Below are positions 3,884-59,657 of a stretch of 64,000 nt of DNA, in pieces. The DNA is from a virus: the IMG/VR virus record IMGVR_UViG_3300027396_000022, positions 14,773-78,772 of that record. One strand, given 5' to 3'. Below the pieces are notes generated by a model, which saw only the letters and a program-made list of their open reading frames with translations, was not told the DNA's origin and did not search any database. The position numbers were made by a program, and so were the translations under genes. Position 1 is the stretch's first letter. Each line of letters starts with the position of its first letter.

Positions 3884-3948
3884 AAGCTTTTATTCCGTTT
3901 TGCATAAGCTTACAAAGTATAACATTCGCTTCTTGATAAAGTATGAAT

Positions 3949-5142: not shown

Positions 5143-5144
5143 TC

Positions 5145-5705: not shown

Positions 5706-5720
5706 TAGGAGGCCCTAACA

Positions 5721-6629: not shown

Positions 6630-6684
6630 GGATAGTTAATCAAGGGAGGGACGTTAAGCTATGAACAATTGTTTTTTTTGAACA

Positions 6685-7071
6685 ATGCTAATTGCTTATC
6701 GTCCCGAACTTGAAAACCCGCCCCGTGAAGGCGGGTTTGGCATTATTACGCAAACAGGTATGATCCAACTCACGCCTGGTCTTAATCAAGATATTCCAGA
6801 ACATCAATGGAAAGTGGCTCGTGAGAATAAGGCAGTAAAACGCCTTATGAACATTGGAGCCATTGAGGAAGTGCGAGAGCAGATCATGGTGGAAGACATT
6901 CCGCAAGATGTGCAAACGCTTTCTCAGATGCCAATGGTGGAAGCCATCCGCATGATTGAACTCATTCATGATCCAGATCAATTGAATGGCTGGAAAAAGA
7001 TTGAAGGCCGCGTGCGCGTGCGCAATGCCATTAATAAGCGCATTGAAAACATTCGCATTGGGAAAGCCTGA
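6685..7071 (+). CDS. Hypothetical head-associated protein
   Basis: Directly follows the capsid gene. Confidence 0.6.
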   Translation: MLIAYRPELENPPREGGFGIITQTGMIQLTPGLNQDIPEHQWKVARENKAVKRLMNIGAIEEVREQIMVEDIPQDVQTLSQMPMVEAIRMIELIHDPDQLNGWKKIEGRVRVRNAINKRIENIRIGKA

Positions 7072-7073
7072 TT

Positions 7074-7385
7074 ATGGCCGTTACTTATGCGAGTTTTCTT
7101 GAGCGGTTCCCTGAATTCACTCCCCATCCATCGGGAATTGTGAATGGCGCCATCTCTGAAGCCACCTACGATGCTTCTGCAGACGTGTTTGGGGAACAAA
7201 CTGATAGAGCAGTTAAATTTCTTGCTGCTCATATCATTGCCATCCAACTTGCACAAATGGGCATTCAAATTGGTGCCACTGAAGGCAAGGTGTATGGTGA
7301 GGGGCTAGATGCCACTCAATACGGTCAAGAGTTTAAGCGTATGCTGAATACGCTGCCTTCTTCTTCTGTTGGTTTCGTTGTATGA
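7074..7385 (+). CDS. Head-tail adaptor (DUF4054-like)
   Basis: FLERFPEF...LAAH...TQYGQEF motifs. Confidence 0.75.
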   Translation: MAVTYASFLERFPEFTPHPSGIVNGAISEATYDASADVFGEQTDRAVKFLAAHIIAIQLAQMGIQIGATEGKVYGEGLDATQYGQEFKRMLNTLPSSSVGFVV

Positions 7386-15680: not shown

Positions 15681-16066
15681 CAATCTCGCCTTCATCCCTA
15701 ATTGGGCGCCCATATAAGCTCGGTGCAGATGGAAGCGGAACTGAAATTGATTGCATTCATTTGGTATATGCCACTTGGCGTTATCTTGGTATTCCTTCGC
15801 CAGCGTTTGAAAATCAATGGTATGTGGCATCAAATAGGTATATAGCGAAAGCAATTTTGCGATGGGGCGCTAGGATACAAGCACCCTACCAGGACGGGGA
15901 TTTATTGCTGCTACCAGACAAAACACACGTTTTTGCCGTGGTGTGGCAATCAGGCATCCTTTACATTAATAGAGACTTAGGAGCTGTTTCTTGGTGTCCA
16001 TTGAGCGCAATTCCTCCATGTCACGTTTTTCGATGCCGATCCTGCCTTACGAAAGGCAGCTCATAG
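15677..16066 (+). CDS. NlpC/P60-like tail assembly protein (gpK-like)
   Basis: LIGRPYKLG...IDCIHLV motif. Confidence 0.7.
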   Translation: MTISPSSLIGRPYKLGADGSGTEIDCIHLVYATWRYLGIPSPAFENQWYVASNRYIAKAILRWGARIQAPYQDGDLLLLPDKTHVFAVVWQSGILYINRDLGAVSWCPLSAIPPCHVFRCRSCLTKGSS

Positions 16067-19000
16067 AATTACTTGGCTGTAGCCCTGAGGAATATTGCGC
16101 TTTTAAAGAAGAAGTGATGCTGCGCTCCAAAGAGCGTCCAGCAGCGTACGAAGGCATCCCTGATATTGTCAATGGTGAAACGGCGTGGATTATTGCATCA
16201 ATTATTATTTCCATTGGCAGCACTGCAGCGAGTTATTTTCTTGCTCCAAAACCTCCCGAAGCCGGTGGAACAAAACAACGAAATAGACAGCTAGATAGCA
16301 TTGTCGGGCGTGATAGATTTGCTCCCACTTTTGGTTTTCAAGCGGGACAAGATATTTCTCGCTACGGCGAATCCATCCCCATTGTTTTTACAAAGCATTT
16401 TTATCAAGGATTCCTGCGTCAATACATTGGCGGGGTAATGATTAGCCCCAAGCTTGTATGGTCTCGTTCTTATAGCTGGGGACGTTTTCAAAGCATCGAT
16501 ATGATGTTCTTAGCAGGGCAAGGCCAAATGGGGCGTGGCCCTTATTCCACTGCAGCAGAAATTGCAGAAGATCGAGCTGGTGTTTATATTGGGCAGTCTC
16601 CCATTGATTCCCTTCTTCCTTCTGATTATCGATGGTTTTATTATCAGGGAGCTGCTGCAAATAGTAATGGCATTGGCTATGCAAATGATAGTAGGCTTGT
16701 TGCGACGCACCATCGCCATGGAGATTGGGGGGATGATGGTCCTCCTAATTCTGCGTTCTATGCCCCGTCTTTTGCTGGTGGTGACGCAGCCGGCTTTAGT
16801 CACTGTTTTTCTCCTTCTACGCAGCTTCAATTTGGCGTATATGGAGCTATTCCTAATGGCACACCTTTACGCTTAAATTGGCAAATTATAAGCAACATTG
16901 ATGACTACACAGACGAAACAAGAGATAGCAATAGGGCTAAGCGTGTGATGATTTGTGGCAATACCAGCATGAATGGCATTGGCAGGAATTATCCGAGGCA
17001 AATTGGAATTGTATTGCATAATAATTACGCCACTTCATTCACTGGAGACAACGGGGAATATAGAACTATTCAAAAAGGAGATACTATTACTCTTATATAT
17101 AATGCGCAGCGGCTTCAAAGACAGTTTTACGCAGAAAGTTATATCGATGAAGACAACATAGATACGCGGGGCCTTGATAACACTGAAATAATCACAACAT
17201 CGCAGTCTGAGCTTGAAAAATACGACGAGGTGTTGCAGCGTGGCACTTATTTCTTCGTGGGCAATTGTAAATTTATTGTCGACTCAAGAACACCAGCAGA
17301 TGAAATTTATAATAAGCGCACCAGGAAGGCATTTTCTATCAAATTAAAATGTGTTGAAGTTTATCCAGATAAACTTGGCTTTGGCCGCATTGGCATTTGC
17401 AATCCATCATATGTCAATAGCACCACTCCACTTCCGCGCAGCAGGGCTGCAGTCGGTACAGATATTGGGGCTCCATGGTTTCCCTTGTGTCAGGCAGAGG
17501 TGGCTTCGTTCCAGAACACTCGCAAGTGTCAATACACGGAAATAGGGATTAAGTCTAATGTTTGGTTGCGTTTCAATAATTTATGTAACTTTACAAACCT
17601 TCCAGAACCGGAGGCTCTTGATAACTTTGATAGCAAAAATATTATACTGTCTGCTGGTACATTACAAACATATACCACAAGGGCTTCGTTTTTCTTTATT
17701 TACGTAAAGCCCGCCAATGCTTCTTCTTCTCAAGACTGGCATTTGATTACTGACATCCCATTTTGCGTCACAGGTTCATCTCCTCAGGATAAATTTAACT
17801 TTATTCGCATTGCCCATAATTTTGATCAGTTTGAGTATCAATTGCGCCCAGTATCATCTTCTGAAATTGTTCATATTATTGGGCGAGATCAATATTGTTT
17901 CAGGCTTAACGCCGAGGCGTCATTCTTGCCTCAAGAAACAAAGCAGACGCCTTATGGTCCCTTCACTGTTTATACCAAGGGAACAAAGGATCAAATAAGC
18001 AGCTTTGCTACTAATGATGAATTGATTAATACAAATATTGATAAGGATGCTCAGTATTATACGGATACCGAAATTGGCGTAAAATTTGTTCGCGCAACAT
18101 TGCTTAGCAACGGAAGTACGGCATCTCCAAACCAATTAAGCAACGCAATTAGCAAGGCTATTAATAAGGACGCCGATCCAAATGCTTCTGAACAGGGATT
18201 TCCCGATATCCCATGGGGAGGCATTGGCGAGGGCAGTATTTACACTTTCACAAATCCAGAAGCAAACTTGTTTAGTGTTGCCCTTTCTAAGAGTGGCCTC
18301 TCCAAGGAAATGTCATTAAAAATGGACATTCAAGTGTATAAAGGAACTGCGTCAGGTGACAGAGATTTGTTTTGGCGCATTGTTGATATTCGGCCAATTA
18401 ATGTCACATCTGATAATAATTTTAAGTGGAGCAAGGGAGACGTATTTACGATTACAAAATCACTAATCAATCCTATTGATTCTGTTGTTTTTCATTTTGA
18501 AGTTACTCGTGGCATCTCTGGAAAGCTGCCTAATGCAACCGTGGCACCTGGGCAGTACGAACGTATTTTTGAAGGTAATTCTGCCATCGCTGAAGTTTCG
18601 CACTATGGAGATTTAATTAGCAGGAGTTGCGACAATGGCCCGGAGCATGAAGTGGTATATGTAAATGAAAGCCTTACGCCAACAAATATTCCCACTTATG
18701 AAGGATGCGCAATGGCCGGTCTTCGCATTCGCAGCGGACGCAACATGAGCCAGTTGGAGCAGCTTCATTTATATCAAAAGAATGGCATTCAAGTGGAGCT
18801 TGTAAGGAGCACTGGAAAGCCTTACGCGGTTGGTCCGTCGAATATATTTACGGATCTTGTGTATTATTTGCTGACCAACAAGCAAGCTGGCATGGGAGGA
18901 TTAGTTGGTGATTCAGTGGTTGATGTAGAGAGTTTTCAAGAAACCGCAAAATTTCTTGAAAGTAATTATTTGTATTACGACGATGTAATTACGGAGCCTA

Positions 19001-19893
19001 AAAATCTTAGGGATTTTATTGCTTCCATCGTCCCATCATTACTATGCACATTGTCCACTCGCAATGGGAAGATTGCTATTACTCCGGCATTACCCGCTCA
19101 GCGCACTGGATCTATTGAACCATTGGTAAGCGTGCCAATTCGTGCAATGTTTACTGATGGCAATATTATTGAAGACTCCTTTGAGCTGCAGCACATTTCT
19201 GCTGACGACAGAAAACCATTCAAGGCGTCCATTCGTTATAGGCAAGAAAAGACGAATCAATTCCCGGAAGAAAAAAATATTGTCGTCTACTACAACGACC
19301 AAGCTGATGCTCCTATTGAGCAATTTGATTTCACTCACATTACTTCACGCATCCATGCAGAGCAGGCAGCCAAGTATTTGTTGAGTTCACGCAGAAATAT
19401 TACGCATACTATTAGCTTCAAGGCTGTGCCATATGGCATTGCATTGGCTCCAGGCGATTACATTCGCGTTGTAACGCAAAGTAATATTTTTGATCCCGAT
19501 GCAAATAATGGCGTCATCTTAGACGATCAAGATGACAATGCAAATGATCCGCGCAAAGGTAACTTTGCTGGTGGCACCATTGTTTCTTTTGAGCCAATTC
19601 CAGATGGAAACCACCCGGTGTTTTTATGGGACAGGACAAATCAAGATGTGCAGGATACAACTATTTTGGTAAAGGATGGAATGGCTTTTAATCAGCGCAA
19701 TGCCATGTTCTGTCTTCGCAAAGACATTAATAGGGAAGAAGTGTACACGGTTGAATCTCTTCAGTTAGATGAAGATGGAATGGTAATGATTACTGCCAGT
19801 TATTTTCCTCTTTATGGCGGCACAGATTACAGTAAAATTGCATATGAGGTGGTACGCGGTGGACAAATTGGTTTCACCGTCGAAGCAAACTAA
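16033..19893 (+). CDS. Central tail tip/host-specificity protein (gpJ-like)
   Basis: About 1290 aa; YGESIPIVF and LAPGDYIRV motifs; homologous to 55783-59652. Confidence 0.75.
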   Translation: MPILPYERQLIELLGCSPEEYCAFKEEVMLRSKERPAAYEGIPDIVNGETAWIIASIIISIGSTAASYFLAPKPPEAGGTKQRNRQLDSIVGRDRFAPTFGFQAGQDISRYGESIPIVFTKHFYQGFLRQYIGGVMISPKLVWSRSYSWGRFQSIDMMFLAGQGQMGRGPYSTAAEIAEDRAGVYIGQSPIDSLLPSDYRWFYYQGAAANSNGIGYANDSRLVATHHRHGDWGDDGPPNSAFYAPSFAGGDAAGFSHCFSPSTQLQFGVYGAIPNGTPLRLNWQIISNIDDYTDETRDSNRAKRVMICGNTSMNGIGRNYPRQIGIVLHNNYATSFTGDNGEYRTIQKGDTITLIYNAQRLQRQFYAESYIDEDNIDTRGLDNTEIITTSQSELEKYDEVLQRGTYFFVGNCKFIVDSRTPADEIYNKRTRKAFSIKLKCVEVYPDKLGFGRIGICNPSYVNSTTPLPRSRAAVGTDIGAPWFPLCQAEVASFQNTRKCQYTEIGIKSNVWLRFNNLCNFTNLPEPEALDNFDSKNIILSAGTLQTYTTRASFFFIYVKPANASSSQDWHLITDIPFCVTGSSPQDKFNFIRIAHNFDQFEYQLRPVSSSEIVHIIGRDQYCFRLNAEASFLPQETKQTPYGPFTVYTKGTKDQISSFATNDELINTNIDKDAQYYTDTEIGVKFVRATLLSNGSTASPNQLSNAISKAINKDADPNASEQGFPDIPWGGIGEGSIYTFTNPEANLFSVALSKSGLSKEMSLKMDIQVYKGTASGDRDLFWRIVDIRPINVTSDNNFKWSKGDVFTITKSLINPIDSVVFHFEVTRGISGKLPNATVAPGQYERIFEGNSAIAEVSHYGDLISRSCDNGPEHEVVYVNESLTPTNIPTYEGCAMAGLRIRSGRNMSQLEQLHLYQKNGIQVELVRSTGKPYAVGPSNIFTDLVYYLLTNKQAGMGGLVGDSVVDVESFQETAKFLESNYLYYDDVITEPKNLRDFIASIVPSLLCTLSTRNGKIAITPALPAQRTGSIEPLVSVPIRAMFTDGNIIEDSFELQHISADDRKPFKASIRYRQEKTNQFPEEKNIVVYYNDQADAPIEQFDFTHITSRIHAEQAAKYLLSSRRNITHTISFKAVPYGIALAPGDYIRVVTQSNIFDPDANNGVILDDQDDNANDPRKGNFAGGTIVSFEPIPDGNHPVFLWDRTNQDVQDTTILVKDGMAFNQRNAMFCLRKDINREEVYTVESLQLDEDGMVMITASYFPLYGGTDYSKIAYEVVRGGQIGFTVEAN

Positions 19894-19895
19894 TC

Positions 19896-20276
19896 ATGAG
19901 TCTTCCAGACATCACGCCCACTTCTCGATCACTAAATCTTGGTCCATGGCCGCTTAAAACTTTCCGTCTCAATAATGGAGCTGAAATTCGGCGTCTTTAT
20001 GGCAATAGGCGAAATAATTTAGAGCTTGAACTTACCTACGAAAACTTACCAGACAGCGTGGCAAATCAATTTAGAGAGAAATATGATGATACAAAGGGAG
20101 GGTTTGATACATTTCGACTTCCAGGCAATACATTTGCTGGGTGGACAAGTGACTCTGGCACCTATATTGGACCCACTGCCAACGTTTGGAGATATAAAGA
20201 GCCTCCCACTATTACCAATGTAAAAAGAGGTGTTAGCACTGTGCAGGTGGTCTTAATTAGCGTGTTTGTTCAATAA
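19896..20276 (+). CDS. Distal tail protein (gpM/Dit-like)
   Basis: LELTYENL...FDTF...WRY motifs; homologous to 59658-60041. Confidence 0.55.
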   Translation: MSLPDITPTSRSLNLGPWPLKTFRLNNGAEIRRLYGNRRNNLELELTYENLPDSVANQFREKYDDTKGGFDTFRLPGNTFAGWTSDSGTYIGPTANVWRYKEPPTITNVKRGVSTVQVVLISVFVQ

Positions 20277-20318
20277 GACACGTTGGAACAATTAGACTAA
20301 TTAGTAGGTGACTGTGCT

Positions 20319-20759
20319 ATGACTTATTTCACTGGACGAAATGGGAAAATGGTGGTCGGTGGTTCTACCATCGCCAAGGTTACATCATGGTCCATGAACG
20401 CAGACTTGGACCTTTTGGAAACCACTGCATTAAATGATGCCAATAAAAGTTTTGTAGCCAATCTTCCTACTTATACTGGTAGTGCCACAATTTTATATTA
20501 CAAAGATGCTGCTGGCGCCTTTGAAACTGATGGCATTTTTGGCAGATTATTAAGGCGAAACGCATCACTAGCAACTGCTACTTTGCGGCTACAAATAGCG
20601 GACGGTAACACTGTGCGAGAAGTAGTTTTAGAAGCATTTATTACATCATTAGCCATTGGAAGTTCTGTGGGAGAAATCGTATCAGCAGATATTAATTTCC
20701 AGGCAACGGGAGACCTTGCCGATCCTACGGCTCAAGCACCTGCTGGTGTTGCATTGTAA
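20319..20759 (+). CDS. Tail-tube-fold minor tail protein
   Basis: TGRNG..VTSWS..ETTAL..FQATG; homologous to 60038-60454. Confidence 0.6.
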   Translation: MTYFTGRNGKMVVGGSTIAKVTSWSMNADLDLLETTALNDANKSFVANLPTYTGSATILYYKDAAGAFETDGIFGRLLRRNASLATATLRLQIADGNTVREVVLEAFITSLAIGSSVGEIVSADINFQATGDLADPTAQAPAGVAL

Positions 20760-20761
20760 TC

Positions 20762-21682
20762 ATGAGTGTTTATCTTGGACATCGAGGGCGAATTGAACTG
20801 CAGCGCACTGGGCAGTCAAAGATTGTCACCAATGTATTGGCTAATCATGTCAATGCCGATTTAGATCGGCTTCAATTGGATTTTGGTCAAGAGAACGGAG
20901 TGGATTTATTATGCCCTTTTAATAATGGCGATGAGATAGAATTTCGCGGGCCAATAAACGCCGCAGGAAATCGCACATTATTATCTTTTGTATCGGCTAG
21001 TGGCTGGTCAGATGGCAATCAGCATGGCTCTGGAAAATGGTTTGTTAATGTTGATGACCTAGGTGGAATACGCCTTTATTCAAGTTTTGAGGCAAGTCTG
21101 GCTGGAGATACTGGTACGTCTATTCCATTGGAAACACTTGCTAATGATATTGACAATGTAGAACTAGAGCTTGCAAATAATATCCCGCGCATACTAGGCA
21201 GGGCTATTTCTTGGGAATTAAATACAACCAGGGAGAATGTTGATACGACTGTATTAATGGATCAATTCAGGAGTCAATGGTCGAGTTTGATGTCTGGAAG
21301 TGGGCGAATTAATGCTCAATGGAATTACAGAGAAGAAGTTGGAGAAACCGGAATTGATATTTCCAATTATTTTCTACAGCTAGCTTTGCGTACTGAAATT
21401 GGGGCTCAGTTTAAGGCTCAATTGTTCCTTAAAACTCCTGGAGCTGGAGGCTTAAATCCAGACGGCACTGACGACGCGCTTTGGTATGACATTTCTGGAG
21501 TGGTTACGCAAGCGGGGGTGCAAGTGTCGCCAGATGCATTGATAGAAGTTGGAATAGATTTTATTACAACGGGACCAATTAAATTACTTGCTCGTACTAT
21601 TCCATTGGATGTTATCTTGCAGGAAAATGGAGATGATCTTTTGTTAGATGGTTTAGTTGCTGGCCGCCTCTTGCTAGAGTGA
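20762..21682 (+). CDS. Minor tail protein (tube-like fold with insertion)
   Basis: Homologous to 60454-61329 (MSVYLG..., FITTGPI). Confidence 0.6.
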   Translation: MSVYLGHRGRIELQRTGQSKIVTNVLANHVNADLDRLQLDFGQENGVDLLCPFNNGDEIEFRGPINAAGNRTLLSFVSASGWSDGNQHGSGKWFVNVDDLGGIRLYSSFEASLAGDTGTSIPLETLANDIDNVELELANNIPRILGRAISWELNTTRENVDTTVLMDQFRSQWSSLMSGSGRINAQWNYREEVGETGIDISNYFLQLALRTEIGAQFKAQLFLKTPGAGGLNPDGTDDALWYDISGVVTQAGVQVSPDALIEVGIDFITTGPIKLLARTIPLDVILQENGDDLLLDGLVAGRLLLE

Positions 21683-21710
21683 GGCATAGCGTAAAAAGCA
21701 GCGCTGAATT

Positions 21711-24035
21711 ATGGCCGACCTTAAAATTTCTCAACTTACAGAACTTGCTGCCGCTGATTTGGCAAGCGATGATGTGTTGGCTGTTGTTAATCTTGGCACT
21801 GGAGAAACGCGAAAAATCAAGGCCACTTCATTAATTAATAGAAGCGTAATTTTTCTTTCTGGCAGTACCATTTCTGGAAGTGCTGTTAATTTTAGTAGCG
21901 TTACTATTAGTGGAACATCTTTAGCAAGCGGCACAGTTTCGTCTGGTAATATTGCGTTTAATTCAATTACTGCTCAATTATTGGCAGACAATAGCGTCAA
22001 TGTAGTAGACAGCGCTCTGCCAGCGTCTGGTGAATTTTTAGGGCAATTTGCTACTACAACTGGAGATGATTTTATTTATGCATGGGATGGATCATCTTGG
22101 TCTCCTATTAAAGCGGCTGGATCTATTGCTTCTGTTAGTGGTGTAGCATCTGGCATTGTAAATATTGCTTCTATTACAACTAGCGGAAATGCCGTCATTA
22201 GTGGTTATTTATCTGCCACTACTTCCGGCTCTCAATTCCTAGCTGGGCCGACTGGAGCTGGAGGATCAGTATATTATCGCCCTATTGAATCTTCCGATCT
22301 TCCCATTGCTACCACGGCCCAAGCGGGAGCTGTCATTATCAATGGAAATGGCCTGACGCTAAGTGGCAACACTGTTGCCATTGACAATTTTATTTCCACT
22401 GCTTCTGGCTTTTTAGGCGTTGCAGTTAATGAATATGGCTTGATTACTCATACCAGGGCTGTTGTTGGAGCGGATCTCCCCATTGCTCAATCTGGAATTA
22501 CTGGAGCGGTTCAGCCCGGTACTGGCCTTGATGTGGATGGTGTGGGAACTATTGGCCATTCCAACTCCATTGCATCTGGAGTGGTAAACGGCATTACATT
22601 TGATACTGAAGGGCACATTACAAATGCCATCCCATTAATTGCAGCAGATATTCCAAATCTTGATGCCAGCAAGATAACGACTGGCACCCTTGACAATGCG
22701 CGCATAGCTGCTCAAAGTATTGTGGGCGCCAAACTGGCCGATAGGTCTACGGCGCAATTCGGTGATAATCAACCCACTGCAGAATATATTGGCCAGCTTT
22801 ATTTTAATAGCCTTTCACGAGATATTTATATTTGGGACGGCAACGTTTGGCAGCCGATTGGTATTTCAGTTGGTGAAATTGTATTCGCCGGTACATACGA
22901 TGCAGGTACCAATTTAGTTGCTTCTGTGACCAGCGATGGTTCTGCTGTTGGCTTAGTAGTTGGACAAGCACTGCCTGCTGCCGCCACTGCAAATAATAGA
23001 TATTATCTTGTTGTTTCGGAAGCAGGCACTGGCACTGGTAATGCACCAAATGTAGCGCTTGCACCTCCAGATATTATTCTTTCCAATGGAAGCGCATGGA
23101 CTGAAATTGACGTTAGTCAAACTCTTACTAACGTAACAGCAAACCAAGTTTCCTATACGCCCGCTGGAAACATTGCTGCAACAAATGTACAAGCGGCATT
23201 GGATGAATTAGATAATGAAAAGCTTGCCGTAAGCGGCGGGACAGTTACGGGAGTAATTACCCTTAGCAATACAAGTAGTGGCATTGCTTTTGAAGGCACT
23301 ACTGATAATGCTTTTGAGACTTTACTCAATGCTGTAGATCCAACCGCCGACAATACAATATTATTACCAAACCTTAGTGGCACATTAATTACCACCGGAG
23401 ATACGGCCACAATTAGTGGTGTCATGATTGCTAGTGGCACTATTACTAACGCCAAAATCAGTCCAACTGCGGCTATTGACGGAGCAAAAATTCAAGCAGC
23501 AAGCACGACGACGAGTGGCGTTGTTGTGTTAGTGGATTCAACTAGCAGCACAAGCACGTCTACTGCCGCCACTCCGAATTCAGTTAAGACTGCTTATGAT
23601 CTAGCAAATGCAGCGCTACCATCATCTGGTGGCACAATGACAGGAGCAATTACATTTGCCTCTGGACAAACTATTAGCGGATATGCACAACTAGCGAGTG
23701 CGCAAAGCTTTACTGCGGCTCAGCGGGGTTCAGTTGTTAGCGTTGCTGGAAGCGGAACTGTAACGCTTAATTTAGCATTGGGCAATAATTTTGCTGCCAC
23801 ATTGAGTGGAACCACTACTTATGCATTGCCGTCTGGAATGACTGCGGGCCAAAGCGGGGCTTTAGTGCTAACGCAAGATGGCACAGGAAGTCGCCTGGTT
23901 TCCTTCTCTGGATGGAAATTCCCTGGCGGGACAGCTCCAACTGCCACTACAACGGCATCGGGAGTTGACGTGGTTGTTTATTACGTCGAAAGTGCTTCTA
24001 GAATTAGCGCTCGCATGGTTAATGATGTGAAGTAG
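21711..24035 (+). CDS. Tail fibre protein A
   Basis: MADLKISQL start; Ser/Thr/Gly-rich repeats; AATPNSVKTAYD; C-terminal TQDGTGSR domain. Confidence 0.85.
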   Translation: MADLKISQLTELAAADLASDDVLAVVNLGTGETRKIKATSLINRSVIFLSGSTISGSAVNFSSVTISGTSLASGTVSSGNIAFNSITAQLLADNSVNVVDSALPASGEFLGQFATTTGDDFIYAWDGSSWSPIKAAGSIASVSGVASGIVNIASITTSGNAVISGYLSATTSGSQFLAGPTGAGGSVYYRPIESSDLPIATTAQAGAVIINGNGLTLSGNTVAIDNFISTASGFLGVAVNEYGLITHTRAVVGADLPIAQSGITGAVQPGTGLDVDGVGTIGHSNSIASGVVNGITFDTEGHITNAIPLIAADIPNLDASKITTGTLDNARIAAQSIVGAKLADRSTAQFGDNQPTAEYIGQLYFNSLSRDIYIWDGNVWQPIGISVGEIVFAGTYDAGTNLVASVTSDGSAVGLVVGQALPAAATANNRYYLVVSEAGTGTGNAPNVALAPPDIILSNGSAWTEIDVSQTLTNVTANQVSYTPAGNIAATNVQAALDELDNEKLAVSGGTVTGVITLSNTSSGIAFEGTTDNAFETLLNAVDPTADNTILLPNLSGTLITTGDTATISGVMIASGTITNAKISPTAAIDGAKIQAASTTTSGVVVLVDSTSSTSTSTAATPNSVKTAYDLANAALPSSGGTMTGAITFASGQTISGYAQLASAQSFTAAQRGSVVSVAGSGTVTLNLALGNNFAATLSGTTTYALPSGMTAGQSGALVLTQDGTGSRLVSFSGWKFPGGTAPTATTTASGVDVVVYYVESASRISARMVNDVK

Positions 24036-24045
24036 GAGAAAACTA

Positions 24046-24189
24046 ATGATTCCAGGAAATATTAATTCTTTACTGCTTGCTGCCGATGCAGCGCCTACTG
24101 GTTATAGTATCTCACGTTCACTGCGGTTCAACAGTAGTGACAGTGACTTGTGGCAAAACCTTTGTAATACACAGGAGGCAGCAAAATGA
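24046..24189 (+). pseudogene. 47-aa N-terminal stub of a fibre-associated adhesin gene, interrupted at the FNSSDS site
   Basis: MIPGNINSLLLAADAAPTGYSISRSLRFNSSDS|DLWQNLCNTQEAAK*; RBS AGGAG; homologous stub at 63796. Confidence 0.7.
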
Positions 24190-24253
24190 CTATCCCAGGA
24201 AGCGCAATATCTCTTCTTCTTGCAGGCGCAGCTACCGACCCTAACCTTGTCGA
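24127..24253 (+). repeat. Direct repeat, copy 1 (identical to 63874-64000)
   Basis: 127/127 nt identical by direct comparison; identity starts abruptly at TTCAACAGTAGTGACAGTG. Confidence 0.95.
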
Positions 24254-25715
24254 GATCTACGCCTGGGGCGGTGGCGGTGGGAGCGGCTATGCAGGTGGAT
24301 CAGGTGCTGGCGGAGGCGGTGGTGCGGTTTACGCAACTGCTGTAATAAGCCCATCTCAGGTTTACAACGTCATTGTCGGTGGCGGCGGTTTAACAATGGC
24401 ACCCAATGCAGGCACGGGCGGCACCGTGTCCGGCGGCGGTGGATTAGCTGGCACAAGTGGCTATGGCGGCCAAGGCGGCGGATATTCAGGGATTTTTATT
24501 GGCGCTGCAGCAACCCAAAATGCCGCGCTTGTTATTGCCGGTGGTGGTGGTGGTGGCGCTTATGAAGGTGCTGCCGGTGGCGCTGGTGGTGGATCTACAG
24601 GTGCCGCAGGAGGCAGCGGAGCTGCTGCTGGTGGCGGAGGCGGAACGCAAAGTGCAGGTGGCACCTCTTCGCATTCGGGTGTTGGCACTGCGCTGAAAGG
24701 AGGCGATTGCGGAACATCGGGAGACGGTGGAGGCGGCGGCGGTGGAGGCGGCGGTTATTGGGGCGGCGGTGCTGGCTCTGGAGCAAACCCTGGCTCAGCC
24801 GGTGGTGGCGGTTCTGGGTATATCAACACGCTGCAAACACTAACCGGCACGCTTTACGCAGGTTCTGGTGCTACTCCAGGAAATAGCGGCAGTTCTTTTA
24901 GAGGAAGCTATGGCAATGGCGGGGCCAGCGGCGCGAACAACGGCTTGCAAGGTGTTGTTATTATTCGCTATCAAGGCACACCGCGCTATACAGGCGGGAC
25001 GATCACTCAATCTGGCGGGTACACAACACATACATTTACAGCAAATGGCTATCTAAATCTGAATACGGTTCTTTTGATGCCATTCAAGACATCGGCAACT
25101 GCAGACCATTCCCCCATTCCAAAGACAGTCACCATGAACGGTACTGTCACGATTTCATCGACTCAGTCAAAGTATTATGGTGCTAGCGCCTATTTCTCCA
25201 ATGGAAACTGGCTGTCTGTCGCCGCTTCAAACGATTTTCTTTTTGCAGCTAATGATTTTACGATGGAATTGTGGATTTACCCAACCACAAACGCTTATGA
25301 TATCTTTGGTGCTCTGGGGGGAAAACTTGCGCTTGGCTTGATTATTGGCAATTCATATAACTTTTCCAGGGCCGATGGAACAATCACTTTTGCCGACGAC
25401 GGCTCGGGCGGCATTGTTACTAATTACCCGAATCAAAACTCAGTGAGCGGGCCAATGGTGGTCAACCAATGGCAGCACCTTGCGTTTGTCCGCAGTGGCA
25501 CGTCATTTTTGATATTTAGAGACGGTCAGCTTTTAAGCACCACAACTGTCAGCTCTTCCAATAATAACGTCGGCAGCAGTTCTCTCGCCATGGGAATTGG
25601 GCGTTTAACTGGATCAACCAATAGGCCAGTCACTGGATACATCCAAGATCTTGCTGTTTATAAGGGTTATGCAAAATACACCGGAACGTTTACGCCTCCA
25701 GGTCCCCTTACATAA
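24186..25715 (+). CDS. Glycine-rich plus LamG/concanavalin A-like putative adhesin (receptor-binding protein)
   Basis: WGGGGGSG..GGGGG motifs to about aa 290; then SKYYGASAYF, DFTMELWIYP, WQHLAFVRSG, GYIQDLAVYKG; RBS CAGGAGG. Confidence 0.8.
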   Translation: MTIPGSAISLLLAGAATDPNLVEIYAWGGGGGSGYAGGSGAGGGGGAVYATAVISPSQVYNVIVGGGGLTMAPNAGTGGTVSGGGGLAGTSGYGGQGGGYSGIFIGAAATQNAALVIAGGGGGGAYEGAAGGAGGGSTGAAGGSGAAAGGGGGTQSAGGTSSHSGVGTALKGGDCGTSGDGGGGGGGGGGYWGGGAGSGANPGSAGGGGSGYINTLQTLTGTLYAGSGATPGNSGSSFRGSYGNGGASGANNGLQGVVIIRYQGTPRYTGGTITQSGGYTTHTFTANGYLNLNTVLLMPFKTSATADHSPIPKTVTMNGTVTISSTQSKYYGASAYFSNGNWLSVAASNDFLFAANDFTMELWIYPTTNAYDIFGALGGKLALGLIIGNSYNFSRADGTITFADDGSGGIVTNYPNQNSVSGPMVVNQWQHLAFVRSGTSFLIFRDGQLLSTTTVSSSNNNVGSSSLAMGIGRLTGSTNRPVTGYIQDLAVYKGYAKYTGTFTPPGPLT

Positions 25716-25728
25716 GGCATGTCAATTC

Positions 25729-25752
25729 TTCAATTACGCCCGCGCCCGCTGA
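25729..25752 (+). pseudogene. Orphan C-terminal remnant (FNYARAR*) of the displaced adhesin gene
   Basis: TTC AAT TAC GCC CGC GCC CGC TGA; matches the PF-x-YARAR end I recall for SRSLRFN-type phage LamG proteins. Confidence 0.5.
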
Positions 25753-25770
25753 CCCCACTAGAGAACAAGG

Positions 25771-26625
25771 TTAAAGCGTCGGCATTTCATAGTCCTGCGT
25801 TGTATTGCAGTAGTGCTTCCAAATAACCTCAGCCGTATTGCCGGCCCACTTTGCGACTTGCGCCACGGGTATTCCTGCCTCAATCCACCGGCTGATTGCT
25901 GTGTGGCGCAGATCGTAAGGCCGGTAACGGTGACTCGTTAATCCAGCAGTGTGCAATTCCTTGGCTCTGTCATAGAAAAAACTCTGGAACGCATACCTGT
26001 TGTACGGGAAAATATATTCATTGTCCTTGTCTACGGAATCAAGAATTTCTAAACACTTTTCGTTTAAAGGTACAACACGTTTCTTGTTTGTTTTTGTAGA
26101 AAACTTCAGGCCATGCGTAAGGGTGTAATTGCAATGGATCAATAACTTCCCATCCTTTAGGTCAGTCCACTTGGCAGCGCGAACTTCACCTGTACGCATT
26201 GCTGTCTGGAGCATAAATTCAGAGTAAGCCGACCAACGTGCGCCACATTTTGTTTGGCGAGCTTCTAGAGCAGTGAGTAAAAGCGCTACTTCGCTGCGTG
26301 GAATTACGATGATTTCTTCATCCATCTGGGGCGCCTTAGGCATCCGAAAACTGGCAATCGGATTTTTAGGCAGGTAGGCAATGTCTTCGCTGCTGGCCCA
26401 GCGATAAAGGGCCTTGACATACATAGCCACCCTGCGGCTGGACTTGACGGGCTGCTGGCTCAAAACCCATGTAAGAACCTGCCTGCCTTGCTCCAGTTCT
26501 GTAACCGGACAGCGACCGATCCACTTGTCGACTTGCCTGTAGTCCGCCATGAGACTGGTGGGACACAAGACAGCAGAACGCTCTGCGTGGAACTCGGCCC
26601 ATGCGCTTTGGAGGGTGTGTGGCAC
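25771..26625 (-). CDS. Tyrosine recombinase (284 aa, no evident arm-binding domain)
   Basis: MRTGE (R), KTNKKR (K), YDLRH (Y replacing H in HxxR), WAGNT, KHY (Y). Confidence 0.9.
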   Translation of the reverse strand: MPHTLQSAWAEFHAERSAVLCPTSLMADYRQVDKWIGRCPVTELEQGRQVLTWVLSQQPVKSSRRVAMYVKALYRWASSEDIAYLPKNPIASFRMPKAPQMDEEIIVIPRSEVALLLTALEARQTKCGARWSAYSEFMLQTAMRTGEVRAAKWTDLKDGKLLIHCNYTLTHGLKFSTKTNKKRVVPLNEKCLEILDSVDKDNEYIFPYNRYAFQSFFYDRAKELHTAGLTSHRYRPYDLRHTAISRWIEAGIPVAQVAKWAGNTAEVIWKHYCNTTQDYEMPTL

Positions 26626-26689
26626 AGTAGTCGCCTACAGGGCCGAGTAAAGTACCGCTATACGTGCCTCCTGTCTAGGTCCAGTACAG

Positions 26690-27199
26690 ATGTTCCTGTT
26701 AGACGGCAAGCCACTGAGCCCAGATGTGGCGTTCACCCACGACGGTGTTCAGTACCCCGCCAACTGGCTCCGGCTTGCTACTCCCGAGCAGCGTGCAGCG
26801 ATCGGCATCACCGAGGTGCCCGATCCCGCTCCAGTCGATCAGCGCTTCTACTGGGATACAGGCATCCCCAAGGACCACACCCAACTGGTCGAGCAGTGGA
26901 CGCAGCAGACCCGCACCACCGCCAACACCCTGCTGGCACCAACGGATTGGATCATCATCCGCGAGGCTGACAACGGCAAACCTGCTGATCCCGTGCTACG
27001 CACCTGGCGCGAGGAAATCCGCCTTGCATCAGGCAGCAAGGTCTACGAAATCAAGCAGACAGCTGACACCGCTGCACTAGCTGCTTACATTACCGGCGCC
27101 GACTACCCAGCTTGGCCCAGTGATCCCTACGCTCCTGCTCAGCCTGCTCCTACTGATGGGGTGGAGTTTTCTGGCAATGGCGTCACTAGCGGATTCTGA
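26690..27199 (+). CDS. Tail fibre assembly chaperone-like protein
   Basis: QYPANWLRL; LLAPTDWxIIR...WRExIR motifs. Confidence 0.65.
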   Translation: MFLLDGKPLSPDVAFTHDGVQYPANWLRLATPEQRAAIGITEVPDPAPVDQRFYWDTGIPKDHTQLVEQWTQQTRTTANTLLAPTDWIIIREADNGKPADPVLRTWREEIRLASGSKVYEIKQTADTAALAAYITGADYPAWPSDPYAPAQPAPTDGVEFSGNGVTSGF

Positions 27200-27201
27200 T
27201 C

Positions 27202-27339
27202 ATGGCGGTAAAAAGTAAAACAGCTCTTGGGCGCGTCGAGCACAAAGCCGGACGTCCAAAAACAACTTCACAAGGTTTTGGTCAGCACAGCCGTCCACGC
27301 CGTCGCGGCAAGAAAAAGCTGGTCGGCCAAGGGCGCTAA
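27202..27339 (+). CDS. Small basic protein (45 aa)
   Basis: Read by hand: MAVKSKTALGRVEHK...RRRGKKKLVGQGR. Confidence 0.6.
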   Translation: MAVKSKTALGRVEHKAGRPKTTSQGFGQHSRPRRRGKKKLVGQGR

Positions 27340-33516: not shown

Positions 33517-33691
33517 TGTTTGTAAGGAAGCTTGAGATGATGTGACGCAAGGCTTGATTGATGTTCTGACCTGATTTGGCGCAGTACACCTTCAGTTGCC
33601 GGTAGGTATCAGGCGGAAGTTTGGCCGCAACGATGGTGCGGTTTTTTCTCCGATTGATTTCCTCTTGTGTTTTGGGCCGTCGCCCTGTCAT
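33509..33691 (-). CDS. Ribbon-helix-helix-like regulator
   Basis: IVAAKLPPDTYRQLKVYC...INQALRHII. Confidence 0.6.
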   Translation of the reverse strand: MTGRRPKTQEEINRRKNRTIVAAKLPPDTYRQLKVYCAKSGQNINQALRHIISSFLTNNG

Positions 33692-34404
33692 GCGGGATTG
33701 TCAGCGATGTACTTGGCAATGAACTCCTTATGTTCAGGGAACTGGATGCGGTCAGCGATACGCGGCGCCATGATCTTGAACTGCTTTTTGAAGGCAGTAA
33801 TCAGATCATCACGTTTTTCGTAACCCTTGACCCAACCCTTGATTTCCTCAACCTCTTCATCGGTCAGAAAAACGACCTTTGATTCAGCCTTGGATTCGGT
33901 CTTGGTCTTTGCCTTGGGTTGAGTGTCCTGCACTTGGGACGGTTGCGCCTTGGGCGTGTCCTGCTGCAGGGCTGGCTTGGTCGGTTCTTCGCGGTGCGGG
34001 TTTTCTATGGCTTCCCGTGCCCAGAGTTGCCATGCAAGGCCGAATTGCGCGGCTGCAGCAGTACAGAGGCAACGCCGATGAGCATCAGTGAGATCACGGG
34101 CAGTGACCTTTTCAAACGCGATGGCGTTGTTGCGGTTATCCATGATCGCCTGCGGGAATGGCGGCGTATCGGATCCGTTGACGTGTTCAAAACACCCGAC
34201 CACATAAGCGGTTCCGTCGGGAGACTTCCAGACATGGCCGGTTTCTGGGTGAGCCTTGAGCGCAAACTGCCAGCCAGGCGCATGATCATGGAGTAGGTGG
34301 GCAACACGGCACCAGTTGACGTAATCAGCGGCGTAGGAGCCGGTTCCTTTGGTTGATACGTCTTGCTGCGTAATGATGCCCCCAAGATTGGGGTAATCGG
34401 TCAT
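33688..34404 (-). CDS. Sak3-like (DUF1071) ssDNA-annealing protein
   Basis: YVNW, MDNRNNAI, RRCL..A.A.FGLA.QLW motifs. Confidence 0.7.
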   Translation of the reverse strand: MTDYPNLGGIITQQDVSTKGTGSYAADYVNWCRVAHLLHDHAPGWQFALKAHPETGHVWKSPDGTAYVVGCFEHVNGSDTPPFPQAIMDNRNNAIAFEKVTARDLTDAHRRCLCTAAAAQFGLAWQLWAREAIENPHREEPTKPALQQDTPKAQPSQVQDTQPKAKTKTESKAESKVVFLTDEEVEEIKGWVKGYEKRDDLITAFKKQFKIMAPRIADRIQFPEHKEFIAKYIADNPA

Positions 34405-34489: not shown

Positions 34490-35230
34490 GATCCTTTCAA
34501 ATCTGTATCCGGCAGTCTTATGTCCTTTGTCAACCGCCCGCGCAATGCACTGCCTTACAACAAATACATCACGAGCAGCGGCTCCCATGCTTGGGTAGAT
34601 CTTGCCAGTTTCAATACAGCGCACACGTTTTTGTTTCCATTGCCGATCCGGTCGTTTCGGGTACTTCCGCAAGATTTCCTTTGCCCATCGTGAATCTTCT
34701 AGCAACATCTGAAGGCCAACCTCATTAGCCCCGCCAAGACGTGAAGGATGATGGCGTGCAAAATCCTTGAACATCTTGGTCGTTACATAATTAAACGTTT
34801 TCCTTTTGCTGTCGCGTCGGTATGTTTCAAGTGGATAATCCTTAAGACGCTTCCAACCCGCAATGGTGTCTCTGGATAGCCCAAGCATCTGGCCAAGTTT
34901 CATAAATGTATAAAACTCAACTGTTGGCCGGTTGGAATAGCCAAGCGTTCTAAGTTTTTTATCTATTGCGTGTTTGCTGCGATCAGGTAGCCCATTAACA
35001 CGTGCCCATAAATTAAACGAACGAACAAGCCGTGACAGCGGCATCGTATTGACGTGATCAATTAGCCAATCTGTTTCTTCCTGCGTCCATAGCCGGACCC
35101 GTGTTCGTGGCTTATTGGCGCAGCTACTACTGCAGGTTTTTCGCGTTGACGGCCTGCCATTACGCAGGATTTTGATGTCAAATGCAGTGCCGCAAATCTT
35201 GCAAATGCGGACGTATTTTGATGCGTTCAC
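34487..35230 (-). CDS. Zn-finger/HTH/NUMOD1 DNA-binding protein
   Basis: CKIC...CSSSC; C-terminal KRVRCIETGKIYPSMGAAAR (NUMOD1-like). Confidence 0.65.
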   Translation of the reverse strand: MNASKYVRICKICGTAFDIKILRNGRPSTRKTCSSSCANKPRTRVRLWTQEETDWLIDHVNTMPLSRLVRSFNLWARVNGLPDRSKHAIDKKLRTLGYSNRPTVEFYTFMKLGQMLGLSRDTIAGWKRLKDYPLETYRRDSKRKTFNYVTTKMFKDFARHHPSRLGGANEVGLQMLLEDSRWAKEILRKYPKRPDRQWKQKRVRCIETGKIYPSMGAAARDVFVVRQCIARAVDKGHKTAGYRFERI

Positions 35231-35655
35231 AGTTTGTTAAGAGTGATCAGGGCTCCTGGTAATTCGCCTTCGTTGGCGTACTGTTTTGTGGCTATCAACG
35301 TCACGACCTGTGAATCGTCTTTGATCAACACATTTGTAATCCCGTCCAAAGTTGAGCGGCAAAGCTTATCAAGATCAGGTTTAGTGAACTTGTAAAACGG
35401 CGCCTTAGGCTTGATTTCGCCTTTGCTGTTGTAATGCGCTTTTGGGCGGCTGAACAGAAAGGTAATCAATACGCTGACAGGTTCATCAATCAATGCCTCG
35501 CCGGTTTCAAGCGCTGCCTGGCTGACGGCAAAACGCCATGGCTTGACCTTCTTTGATGCTTCTACCATGCGGCCATTGCCAACATGTCGCTTGCTGCCCT
35601 GAGGCGCTGGCTCAATGCCCTGAACGGCAAACTTCATTTCGTATGCGTCAGACAA
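35227..35655 (-). CDS. rusA: RusA-family Holliday junction resolvase
   Basis: PAPQGSKR, KPDLDKLCRSTLDGI, DDSQV motifs. Confidence 0.9.
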   Translation of the reverse strand: MSDAYEMKFAVQGIEPAPQGSKRHVGNGRMVEASKKVKPWRFAVSQAALETGEALIDEPVSVLITFLFSRPKAHYNSKGEIKPKAPFYKFTKPDLDKLCRSTLDGITNVLIKDDSQVVTLIATKQYANEGELPGALITLNKL

Positions 35656-36547: not shown

Positions 36548-37282
36548 TCAAAACTCCGGTTGGTTCAGCATCAGGAACGCATCACGGGCGCCCTGCCACT
36601 CGATCACCGCCTCGTCAACGTCCACCTTTTGCAACGTCGTACTGCCAGGTCGGCTCCACAGCACCCCAGCCTTCTGCACATACAGCTTCGGCCAGTGCAG
36701 GCTCAGCATTCCCAAGTACCCGCCCAACTGTGGGCTCACGTCATACGGGCTGGCATCGGCCTTGCCCTGCGTTTTCAAATCCACCAGCACAAGCTGTTCG
36801 TAATCATCCTTACGCCGCAGCAGGCAATCGAAGCTGCCCGCAATGTTGCGTTCTAAATCCGCCAACCGATATTCACAGGCCACTGCCTCATACGTATTCC
36901 AAACGGAATGTTCAAGCAGCGGCTCAACCCATTCGCTGTAGTCAGCCGGATACACCCCTGGCTCACCAGTCGTCAGAAAGTTTTCCAACGCCAAATGAAC
37001 TGCCTTCCCACGCGGTTCCCAAATGTGTTTGGTCTCCATAATCCGTTTCATCGCCCACGCATCCTTCGTGCCCTTGCACACCTGCGTTACTGAATGATTC
37101 AGCCACTGACCCGTGGGCTGCCATTGGTAGCGGTGCGCTTCCTCGTTGAACAGGATCGGCAGCGGCGGTAACCACCGGGAAGTCTCTTGGATCTGTGATT
37201 TGGACTCGTTCGGCTGGTGTGGGCTCATCTCTGAGGGGATTACGGAAGACGGGCGGTGTAAAACCGGGAATGCGTTTGGCAT
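36548..37282 (-). CDS. PD-(D/E)XK exonuclease (start uncertain)
   Basis: HRY, SVT, RGKAVH, AGSFD, VDLKT and QLGGY motifs. Confidence 0.85.
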   Translation of the reverse strand: MPNAFPVLHRPSSVIPSEMSPHQPNESKSQIQETSRWLPPLPILFNEEAHRYQWQPTGQWLNHSVTQVCKGTKDAWAMKRIMETKHIWEPRGKAVHLALENFLTTGEPGVYPADYSEWVEPLLEHSVWNTYEAVACEYRLADLERNIAGSFDCLLRRKDDYEQLVLVDLKTQGKADASPYDVSPQLGGYLGMLSLHWPKLYVQKAGVLWSRPGSTTLQKVDVDEAVIEWQGARDAFLMLNQPEF

Positions 37283-39750: not shown

Positions 39751-40068
39751 TTGGCGCGTTCTACCGCCGCTGAAGTCAACTTCCGTATTGACACCGTTTA
39801 CGGTCTTCTGACCGAAGGAAAATCGCGTGGTCAGATTGTTCAGTTCGGCGCAGAACAGTGGAATGTAGATATTCGTCAAGTCGATAACTACATCAAACGC
39901 GCACGAATCCGCCTAGAAGAAGACGCCGCCATGACCCGGCCTTCATGGATTGCCGAAGCCCTAGGCCGTCTTCGTACCTACGAACAATCCGCCTACAAGC
40001 GCGGCCAAACGCAAGTCGCCCTGAATTCGGTCCAACTCCAAGCCAAACTGATCGGCCTTGAAATTTGA
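39751..40068 (+). CDS. Putative terminase small subunit
   Basis: HTH-like; first rightward gene ahead of terL. Confidence 0.55.
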   Translation: MARSTAAEVNFRIDTVYGLLTEGKSRGQIVQFGAEQWNVDIRQVDNYIKRARIRLEEDAAMTRPSWIAEALGRLRTYEQSAYKRGQTQVALNSVQLQAKLIGLEI

Positions 40069-40121
40069 GCCTGCTCGCCCCTAGCTTTGCCTTTCGCTCC
40101 GTCACGGGCTACTATAAAGGA

Positions 40122-40700
40122 ATGGCGAAGCTTACGACCGCGCAGTTCGTTGAACGCGCAAAGGCCGCCCATGGCGACCGCTTTGATTATTGCTGTTCTG
40201 ATTACCAAGGCGCACTCACCAAAATCGCCATCATTTGCCCTTTTCACGGGTTGTTCATGCAATTGCCTACAAATCACTGGCGCGGAGCGGGCTGCAAGGA
40301 GTGTCGAAAAACAAGCAGCCCAGAAATTCGTCGCGCCAATGCAGCCAAAAGGCAAGCAAAATTGCGTGAGCGCCAGCGGCATACGCCTGAATACAAAATT
40401 GCCAATTTTTCCCGTGTTCGCCTTTACAAGGCTTTGTCTTCGCAGGGCATAAGAAAAAATTGTCGCACTGCCGATTGGCTTGGCTGTTCACCTGCCGAAC
40501 TTCGTGATTACATTGCTGCCAAGTTTGAGGATGGTATGACTTGGGATAATTTTGGGCAATGGGAGGTTGACCACATTCGCCCTTGCGCCAGCTTTGATCT
40601 AACCGATCCCGTACAACGACTTGCTTGTTTTCATTTCACAAACCTTCAACCACTTTGGAGAAACGATAATCGCCGCAAAAGCGCCAAGATGCTGGAATGA
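40122..40700 (+). CDS. Homing-type HNH endonuclease
   Basis: FVERAKAAHGDRFDY..CPFHG..H..G.GC..C; WEVDHIRPC..HFTNLQPLW..N..K. Confidence 0.8.
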   Translation: MAKLTTAQFVERAKAAHGDRFDYCCSDYQGALTKIAIICPFHGLFMQLPTNHWRGAGCKECRKTSSPEIRRANAAKRQAKLRERQRHTPEYKIANFSRVRLYKALSSQGIRKNCRTADWLGCSPAELRDYIAAKFEDGMTWDNFGQWEVDHIRPCASFDLTDPVQRLACFHFTNLQPLWRNDNRRKSAKMLE

Positions 40701-59652: not shown

Positions 59653-59657
59653 GCGCC

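Follow-up and report, generated by a model that had tools for sequence, protein, structure and literature searches.

The window analysed here is a 64,000-nucleotide (nt) stretch of virus DNA, positions 14773-78772 of a 78,772-nt virus record (IMG/VR IMGVR_UViG_3300027396_000022), and the sequence under study is a 24-mer that lies between the gene for a 509-amino-acid (aa) protein and a convergent gene for a tyrosine recombinase. We conclude, with a probability of about 0.8, that this 24-mer is a non-functional vestige of a resident tail-fibre-like gene, of which it keeps the last seven codons and the stop. That gene is called X, after the name given here to a family of ~800-aa LamG-SPRY-DUF7483 tail-fibre-like proteins whose N-terminus matches a short stub open reading frame (ORF) on the other side of the 509-aa gene. 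Relatives that still carry an intact X point to replacement of the gene's interior, and the replacing module, vestige included, is shared by different phages of the same rivers.

The 24-mer, TTCAATTACGCCCGCGCCCGCTGA, occupies positions 25729-25752 of the + strand and translates as F N Y A R A R followed by a stop, which confirms what a sequence-only reading of the window had reported between the adhesin stop and the recombinase stop. This orphan starts 13 nt past the TAA stop (25713-25715) of the 509-aa ORF (24186-25715), is in frame +1 relative to that ORF, has no start codon of its own, and ends 18 nt short of the stop codon (25771-25773, - strand) of the 284-aa recombinase. A degenerate pattern for F-[QNK]-Y-A-R-A-R-stop (TTYMANTAYGCNMGNGCNMGNTRA) had one match in the 64-kb window and none in 100 dinucleotide-preserving shuffles; with one mismatch permitted in the orphan search, 0.3 chance hits are expected.

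Stub and orphan carry the two termini of X. The stub ORF (47 aa, 24046-24189, +) consists of 33 X codons, MIPGNINSLLLAADAAPTGYSISRSLRFNSSDS, and 14 cassette-derived codons, DLWQNLCNTQEAAK, and its portion 24046-24144 matches the N-termini of many loci and of four database proteins (P0001-P0004). These proteins (802-969 aa), the four hits of a protein search with the stub in which only longer proteins were considered, have the same N-terminus, continue ..DSAYLSRTPASAGNRKTW.. and end in ESPFQYARAR, ESPFNYSRAR, NPFALNARAR and ESPFQYSRAR. An alignment-based scan of IMG/VR found more than 576 X-family loci, of which 80 were retrieved, 73 of them with complete genes. The family's N-terminal peptide, M(I)PG..N.LLL....GY.I.RSLRFNS[AS]DS, is found in the stub. 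The C-terminal consensus across the 73 complete genes is AAFAE[SN]PF[QNK]Y[AS][RL]AR followed by the stop, and the orphan conforms to it; 19 of the 73 genes end in YARAR and three (L010, L011, L012) in exactly ESPFNYARAR. The earlier suggestion that relatives with the stub N-terminus end in a YARAR-type C-terminus is thus borne out by the database proteins and the IMG/VR genes alike. In Pfam, X relatives have SPRY and DUF7483 (PF24299), to which one relative adds an N-terminal LamG. The LamG-SPRY-DUF7483 set is absent at the locus in the window, where the stub has no Pfam match and the 509-aa ORF has Laminin_G_3 only; the locus is therefore read as a remnant of X and not as a functional member of the family. 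Gene order around X is fibre, X, p169: in 57 of the 80 loci X is directly followed by a p169 homologue, and in 36 it is preceded by a tail fibre homologue. The window locus occupies this usual slot between fibre and p169, with the integrase interposed, as it is in at least 12 relatives.

Those relatives show what the locus looks like when X has not been swapped. Among 33 IMG/VR loci found to encode integrase homologues, at least 12 have an intact X ending in PF[NQ]YARAR and a stop just before the integrase stop. Intact X is combined with the same integrase (98–99% aa identity) in L120, L122, L149 and G003. The 818-aa X of L120 (integrase 99%) ends in 24 nt of which 23 are identical to the orphan; together with the spacer CCCCACTAGAGAACAAGG and the integrase stop, they align with window 25729-25773 with that one mismatch. 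G003, a complete 45.7-kb circular genome (integrase 98%), has a 792-aa X starting MIPGSANPLLLATAAAGGYSISRSVRFNSSDSAYLS. When intact-X relatives were compared with the record by blastn, homology stopped at 63895, in a second stub described below (equivalent to 24148 in the first), and restarted at 25728; the 12 nt preceding 25729 have no similarity to X. These break and restart positions show that about 2.3 kb of X interior has been replaced by window ~24146-25728. The sequence-only reading had proposed that stub and orphan are the two fixed ends of one gene with a swapped interior, to be recognised by identity resuming upstream of recombinase homologues; the termini and the intact-X relatives both support it. 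Its right-hand boundary at 25729 stands for the ancestral replacement, but not for the segment shared at present, which extends to 25770.

The left junction zone (24127-24148, +) lies inside the conserved N-terminal motif of X (TTCAACAGTAGTGACAGTG...). It was delimited by comparing cassette copies, among which identity starts at 24127, but at 24139 in L088, and by comparison with intact X, homology to which runs out at about 24145-24148. The segment that replaces the X interior (24146-25728, +; boundaries by comparison with intact-X relatives) is composed of a 40-nt leader with the ribosome-binding site (RBS) CAGGAGG, the 509-aa ORF and a 13-nt trailer, and the stop of the stub overlaps the start codon of this ORF as ATGA. 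The stub tail DLWQNLCNTQEAAK is present in only three other IMG/VR contigs. The 509-aa protein begins with an X-like peptide, MTIPGSAISLLLAGAA, clearly related to the MIPGSANPLLLATAA of X, followed by a Gly-rich domain and a C-terminal LamG domain; Laminin_G_3 (4e-16) is its sole Pfam domain, and PHROG tail families are matched. The gene thus supplies the presumed docking peptide a second time. As a small coordinate correction, the TTCAAC of the left site lies at 24127-24132. The TTCAA shared with the orphan does occur in both sequences, as had been claimed, but as a common recombination core it was rejected: it is merely the Phe-Asn codon pair of RFNSS and PFNYARAR, and relatives mostly have TTC CAA or TTC AAA (PFQY/PFKY) at the right end.

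Several phages sampled in the same rivers carry the module in its present shared form (24127-25770, +) at 100% identity. Both the orphan and the ancestral X-to-integrase spacer (25753-25770, +) belong to it, and its right end coincides with the integrase stop. The spacer is identical in L003, L120, L119, L011 and L012 and closes with a conserved post-stop motif, CTAGAGAACAAGG (25758-25770). At 100% identity, the same module is found behind at least four different stubs: A, B and C, where it starts at 24127, and D, where it starts at 24139. Exact-pattern scans located the same left junction behind the third stub in L084/L085 (phage C), and the same orphan and spacer at the opposite end of phage C's 83-kb contig (L003). 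The fourth stub, in L088, reads ..RFNAGDS followed by DLWQ.. and narrows the left junction to 24139-24148. TCACTG/CAGTGA arms were considered as a feature of the left site and rejected, as they occur in background A only and the codons upstream differ in B, C and D. As a separate observation, L085 (reverse complement 1196-7129) has an intact 903-aa X followed by p169, lying upstream of a second, short fibre gene, stub C and the cassette; phage C has two receptor-binding modules in tandem, and the stub-cassette unit is its second fibre module.

Within the record itself, a second stub (46 aa, 63796-63936, +) lies behind a second, diverged tail module, and a second copy of the cassette 5′ end (63874-64000, +; 127 nt, 100% identical to 24127-24253) reaches the record end. 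The two tail modules, at 15991-24035 and 55708-63791, are 39,747 nt apart and encode proteins about 42–50% identical in aa sequence. The 78.8-kb 'complete' record is probably a fusion, via the shared cassette, of the left 38.9 kb of a phage A with the complete circular genome (39.7 kb) of a phage B. No match to the record start was found among the retrieved sequences, and in a DNA search of a phage collection the sole match, 152 nt long, was with the integrase of Synechococcus phage S-LBS1.

The region is present in 20 riverine metagenome runs, and Logan contigs (k=31) from four river runs (X1, X17, X5, X2) were placed on it. In runs X1, X17 and X5 the module is a single 1643-nt contig node (24127-25769). 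Its depth was 19.9, 38.1 and 62, respectively, against 5.7, 13.2 and 18.6 for left flank A and 7.5, 16.3 and 32.9 for the integrase-side flank; in all three runs node depth is about equal to the sum of the two left and of the two right flank types. For X1 these sums are 5.7 + 14.7 on the left and 7.5 + 12 on the right, the second right branch (depth 12) being the L003-type continuation after 25770. The contig graph splits at 25770/25771. A reading of this branch as an attP or prophage junction was discarded, since the other flank codes for an endolysin and a holin-like protein and is phage DNA. In run X2 a contig continues to 26449 with no right branch. Contigs from the A side join the A-specific base 24126 to cassette-specific sequence as far as 24156 (one of them, 38,907 nt long, ends at 24156), and 25729-25770 is crossed unbroken; because A-side contigs reach into cassette-specific sequence, the junctions are real. 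No strand-change joints were seen in the placed river contigs, a weak point being that contigs only were available. Window 24535-24760, which holds Gly-rich coding repeats, shows many loose contig ends and one 171-nt 'skip' joint; these most likely derive from Gly-rich genes of other organisms or from repeat-length variants.

The layout of stub plus restart is found with other versions of the cassette. L087, on the complete circular genome G004, has a 76%-identical gene with an ATGA overlap behind its own stub (..RFSSSDS followed by GFDCRNNNSKEEIQ); the gene is followed by CTCGTAGTGAACACG and then p169, and there is no orphan. In L086, which lacks an integrase here, a 95%-identical gene precedes an orphan that differs from the window's at three third positions; a small ORF and p169 come next. 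All three differences between the window and L086 are synonymous in the FNYARAR frame, which has a ~4% probability by chance and is suggestive but not significant, the cassette itself being 7.4% diverged. A different cassette (II) occurs in L125-L128 behind a stub ending ..RFNSSDSAY, continued by DGQEVAA, with the ATGA overlap and the same RBS. It comprises two genes: one of 293 aa, Gly-rich, whose protein has the X-like N-terminus MTIPGSANPLLLAAA, and one of 125 aa (MAHFAQID..). They are followed by a small ORF and the same integrase (96% aa identity); in L125 (reverse complement) the stub is at 1949-2074 and the ORFs are at 2071-2952 and 2952-3329. Across these three cassette versions, sequence comparison indicates that the stub-plus-restart layout is recurrent and that the orphan is particular to cassette I.

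Both ends of X are conserved at the DNA level. The 80 sampled loci include eight RFNSSDS-type X genes (L007, L011, L012, L015, L016, L017, L027, L028), and all of them use the identical codons AAY AGT AGT GAC AGT GCC TAC at the motif that corresponds to window 24130-24145, while four conserved residues just upstream are encoded by 4–5 synonymous codons each; synonymous sites are frozen over ~30-90 nt, beginning with the Asn codon. In the ten RFNSADS-type X genes no position is free of variation. Counted from the AAC codon, mean pairwise identity rises from 0.42 (-60 to -30 nt) and 0.64 (-30 to 0) to a peak of 0.94 (0 to 30), then declines to 0.86 (30 to 60), 0.73 (60 to 90) and about 0.3 beyond 90 nt. 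At the 3′ end of X, TAC GCC CGC is largely fixed. In the nearest subgroup, the X stop is followed by the post-stop motif [GC]TAG[TA]G[AG]ACA[AC]G (seen in L004, L006, L009, L010, L012, L027, L036, L065 and L080), which also closes cassettes I, I′ and II and is the point where integrase-type, holin-type and p169-type flanks diverge. This motif may be a module boundary sequence.

We consider it fairly likely, from these comparisons, that the swap took place by homologous recombination at the conserved ends of X. On this reading the ancestor resembled L120, with fibre, X, an 18-nt spacer and a convergent integrase. X codons about 34 to 811 were then exchanged for a 1.58-kb module that has an RBS of its own and holds an entire alternative receptor-binding gene, which re-supplies the N-terminal docking peptide of X ahead of its Gly-rich and LamG domains. 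Of X, the first 33 codons remain in the 47-aa stub ORF, while the orphan preserves the last seven and the stop; the composite 24127-25770 (stub tail, gene, orphan and spacer) is now passed between co-occurring phages. Crossovers would fall in the DNA-conserved ends of the X slot, with the N-terminal motif ..TTC AAC AGT AGT GAC AGT G.. as the left handle and the C-terminal and post-stop sequence ending ..TAG(A/T)GAACAAGG as the right handle. Help in the exchange probably comes from the Rad52-like annealing protein and the exonuclease that the phages themselves encode. PHROG matches identify a Sak/Rad52-like single-strand annealing protein (33688-34404, -), with RusA (35227-35655) and exonuclease (36548-37282) genes near it; the recombination-gene matches are phrog_21418 (9e-61), phrog_659 (9e-9), phrog_298 (3e-13) and phrog_140 (3e-31), and all three genes are assigned to phage B. 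De Paepe et al. (2014, PMC3945230) report that phage recombinases of the Rad52 type give rise to mosaics through short, diverged homology. As in fibre mosaicism by homologous recombination, the identical segment sits in diverged backgrounds, and its junctions coincide with family-wide DNA conservation at both ends. If crossovers kept occurring in the one stretch of sequence that the genomes share, they would leave just such homogenised patches flanking a variable gene. The data show the vestige, where the replacement begins and ends, and that phages share the module; the recombination step we infer.

Several observations weigh against this account. The support is all comparative and comes from assemblies or Logan contigs rather than from raw reads or an observed recombination event, and the pairing of left and right flanks is ambiguous, since the shared module probably links two genomes in the record. 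The orphan is missing in L087 and cassette II and is therefore not general to these cassettes. At 24 nt + 18 nt, homology on the right is short for homologous recombination. On the left, identity begins at one and the same nucleotide in three backgrounds, as a site-specific enzyme would also give, and the 8-nt word AGTAGTGA is common to the left motif and the common right motif, with an estimated chance of about 1–2%. It is the sharp common left edge and AGTAGTGA that still speak for a site-specific or nuclease-initiated route. More speculative still is the idea that the X slot is a dedicated 'landing pad' whose ends are kept identical in DNA as recombination handles for trading whole receptor-binding genes, which we regard as doubtful. 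If true, it would be a recombinase-independent or not-yet-recognised site-specific platform for host-range cassettes, integron-like in logic, through which unrelated phages in a community trade receptor-binding genes, each with its own RBS and docking peptide behind a kept stub.

The gap between the 509-aa gene and the integrase is poor in recognisable signals. Positions 25700-25790 fold at -14.5 kcal/mol (z = +0.68), 160 of 200 shuffles being at least as stable, and no hairpin is predicted; no promoter-like or terminator-like sites were found between the two genes. No significant direct or inverted repeats flank the cassette (23900-27300 checked for inverted repeats), and no repeats linking the left site, the orphan and the integrase start were found. 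An ATG at 25719, two codons past the TAA of the 509-aa gene and in the same frame, opens a 35-codon frame (MSILQLRP.., 25719-25826) across the orphan. In some relatives, X is separated from the integrase or p169 by a member of a small ORF family (..F.SELT.GISQ.R...IE.RK..IR.K..), as at 881-1048 in L086 and about 3380-3500 in L125 (reverse complement); the window retains only the truncated 35-codon frame.

Among other explanations, site-specific cassette exchange would have the adjacent tyrosine recombinase, or another enzyme, act on a short core at the N-terminal motif of X and after its stop, cutting receptor-binding cassettes out and putting them in as integrons do, the orphan being just a part of the cassette. 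The shared segment does end exactly at the integrase stop codon, the left edge falls at one base in backgrounds A, B and C, AGTAGTGA occurs in both boundary motifs with a related word, ACAGTAGTCGCC, at the integrase start, and the post-stop motif persists beside integrase homologues down to 68% identity. But the window's own right motif has only 6 of the 8 positions of the left word unchanged, integrases less than 90% identical do not keep the word found ahead of the integrase start, and the post-stop motif also follows X in phages that have no integrase. The left junction is not constant either, lying 12 nt further right in L088 and differing again in cassette II, and the cassette has neither significant flanking repeats nor a hairpin in the gap. 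The integrase, for its part, adjoins intact X in at least 12 relatives, is absent from this place or altogether in the carriers L086 and L003/G001, and in G004 is 45% identical and 4.4 kb off. We therefore rate this route as improbable. We give no better odds to gene conversion initiated by an endonuclease, in a homing-like manner, in which a nuclease would cut near the N-terminal motif during co-infection and repair would copy the module with tracts of varying length. It would account for a conserved patch that is sharp on the left and decays rightward, and the phage does encode an HNH/endonuclease VII-like protein (40065-40700). That gene, however, adjoins the terminase, where such genes usually serve packaging; the cassette has no endonuclease gene, evidence for a cleavage site is none, and crossovers limited to the sole conserved stretch give the same decay.

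A present-day function for the orphan, as the start of the small ORF MSILQLRP.. or as a regulatory element, is very improbable. The ATG at 25719 is matched in L086, where the same start opens a 55-aa frame, and the differences between the two orphans are silent in the FNYARAR frame. Yet two of the three are non-synonymous in the MSILQ frame, silent third-position changes of that number are not significant given the divergence noted above, and the conserved small ORF of relatives starts at the X stop (ATGA) or further downstream, not within the orphan. L087 and cassette II manage without an orphan, the gap has no predicted RNA structure and no promoter-like or terminator-like site, and DNA homology to intact X 3′ ends fully explains the sequence. 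That the stub-cassette and cassette-orphan joins are chimeric contig joins through short repeats is hardly credible. The record does have two tail modules, ends within a repeat of its own interior, and three other contigs break 127 nt into the module; but independent k=31 contigs from the four runs span the A-side join (24126-24156) and 25729-25770, the same joins recur in contigs of other samples (L084/L085, L088, L086, L003), and the complete circular G004 shares the stub-cassette join, though without the orphan. Chimerism concerns the pairing of flanks, not the junctions. Homologous recombination at the ends of X, with the orphan as a vestige, is the account that we retain.

The integrase (284 aa, 25771-26625, -), whose only family matches are to Pfam Phage_integrase (8.5e-17) and PHROG integrases (phrog_1), is convergent with the fibre genes. 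Because it stands beside intact X, is missing or distant in other cassette carriers and has no repeats or hairpins at the cassette ends, we regard it as the phage's ordinary integrase, ancestral between X and p169, and not as the agent of the swap; it is not tied to the cassette. A homologue is absent from G001 and G002. Bacterial genomes searched for integrase homologues gave one weak match and none close, from which neither host nor attB can be inferred. At the integrase start, 26623-26635, CACAGTAGTCGCC resembles a variant of the post-stop motif, GTAGTCGC, that lies next to more distant integrases. This sequence is conserved only among integrases at least 90% identical, as are the words ACAGTAGT and TGTGGCA nearby, which are 7-8-mers. 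Runs X17 and X5 contain two integrase alleles, with 13 differences in 192 nt (26366-26557), and L036-like single-nucleotide polymorphisms at 25789, 25798 and 25801. Of the genes that bracket the X slot, the 774-aa tail fibre gene directly upstream (21711-24035, +) matches Pfam Phage_fiber_2 and PHROG tail-fibre families, and the p169 gene (26690-27199, +), the usual direct successor of X, has a weak tail-fibre-assembly match (phrog_4912, 1.8e-4).

Intact L120 and G003 and the swapped window form a base-resolved before/after pair for the replacement of a receptor-binding gene in uncultured river phages. A 1.6-kb module at 100% identity among phages whose tail proteins are ~48% identical shows that recent and repeated movement of host-range modules can happen in nature. 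The conserved ends of X, short in cassette-bearing genomes, would be natural guides for engineering fibre swaps in the widespread group of LamG-SPRY-DUF7483 phages. A practical warning is that modules shared in this way interrupt assemblies, and that a viral record called 'complete' can be a fusion of two genomes.

X is present in cultured phages, among them Pelagibacter podophages, Methylophilales phage MEP301 and cyanophages PSS2 and SS120-1, and is annotated there as a tail fibre, SPRY-domain or virion structural protein. Stub and orphan are the ends of a gene such as the HTVC011P 'tail fiber protein', the MEP301 'SPRY domain containing protein' or the PSS2 'fiber protein', in the same genomic slot; compared with the X proteins of pelagiphages, cyanophages and OM43 phages, the window keeps 33 N-terminal and 7 C-terminal codons, and all three domains are gone. 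Like integrons and the shufflon and invertase switches (Rci, Gin/Cin), the locus has a tyrosine recombinase gene beside a variable cassette for adhesion specificity. Unlike integrons, it has no attC-like hairpin at the cassette 3′ end and no flanking repeats, and its integrase is convergent with the cassette, also adjoins X where no swap has taken place, and is missing from other carriers of the cassette. Unlike in shufflons (Rci, Gin, Cin), significant inverted repeats are missing from 23900-27300 and no oppositely oriented fibre fragments are found among the ORFs. The resemblance to relaxed recombination by Rad52-like proteins (PMC3945230) lies in a temperate phage with a Sak/Rad52-like protein and an exonuclease and in a 100%-identical segment between short conserved sequences; compared with those mosaics, the present case comes from sequence comparison, and its homology arms are very short (~18–30 nt left, ~24–42 nt right).

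Swapping of adhesin and tail-fibre modules at conserved motifs is known from T-even gp37/gp38 and from the fibre mosaics of P2, Mu, P1 and lambda, and was reportedly treated by Tetart et al. in 1998, Haggard-Ljungquist et al. in 1992 and Sandmeier in 1994. As in those swaps, a host-range determinant has been exchanged between diverged phages with junctions in short conserved stretches, the N-terminal attachment part is lineage-specific and the distal part exchangeable, and vestigial fragments can remain. Here, in contrast, a complete gene with its own RBS and docking peptide sits between a 33-codon stub and a 7-codon orphan, and the layout of stub plus ATGA restart recurs for three cassette versions. 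The kind of event, exchange of a host-range or tail-fibre module at conserved motifs, is thus well known; what is new is not a category but the nested complete-gene layout, the recurrent stub with restart and the population-level evidence.

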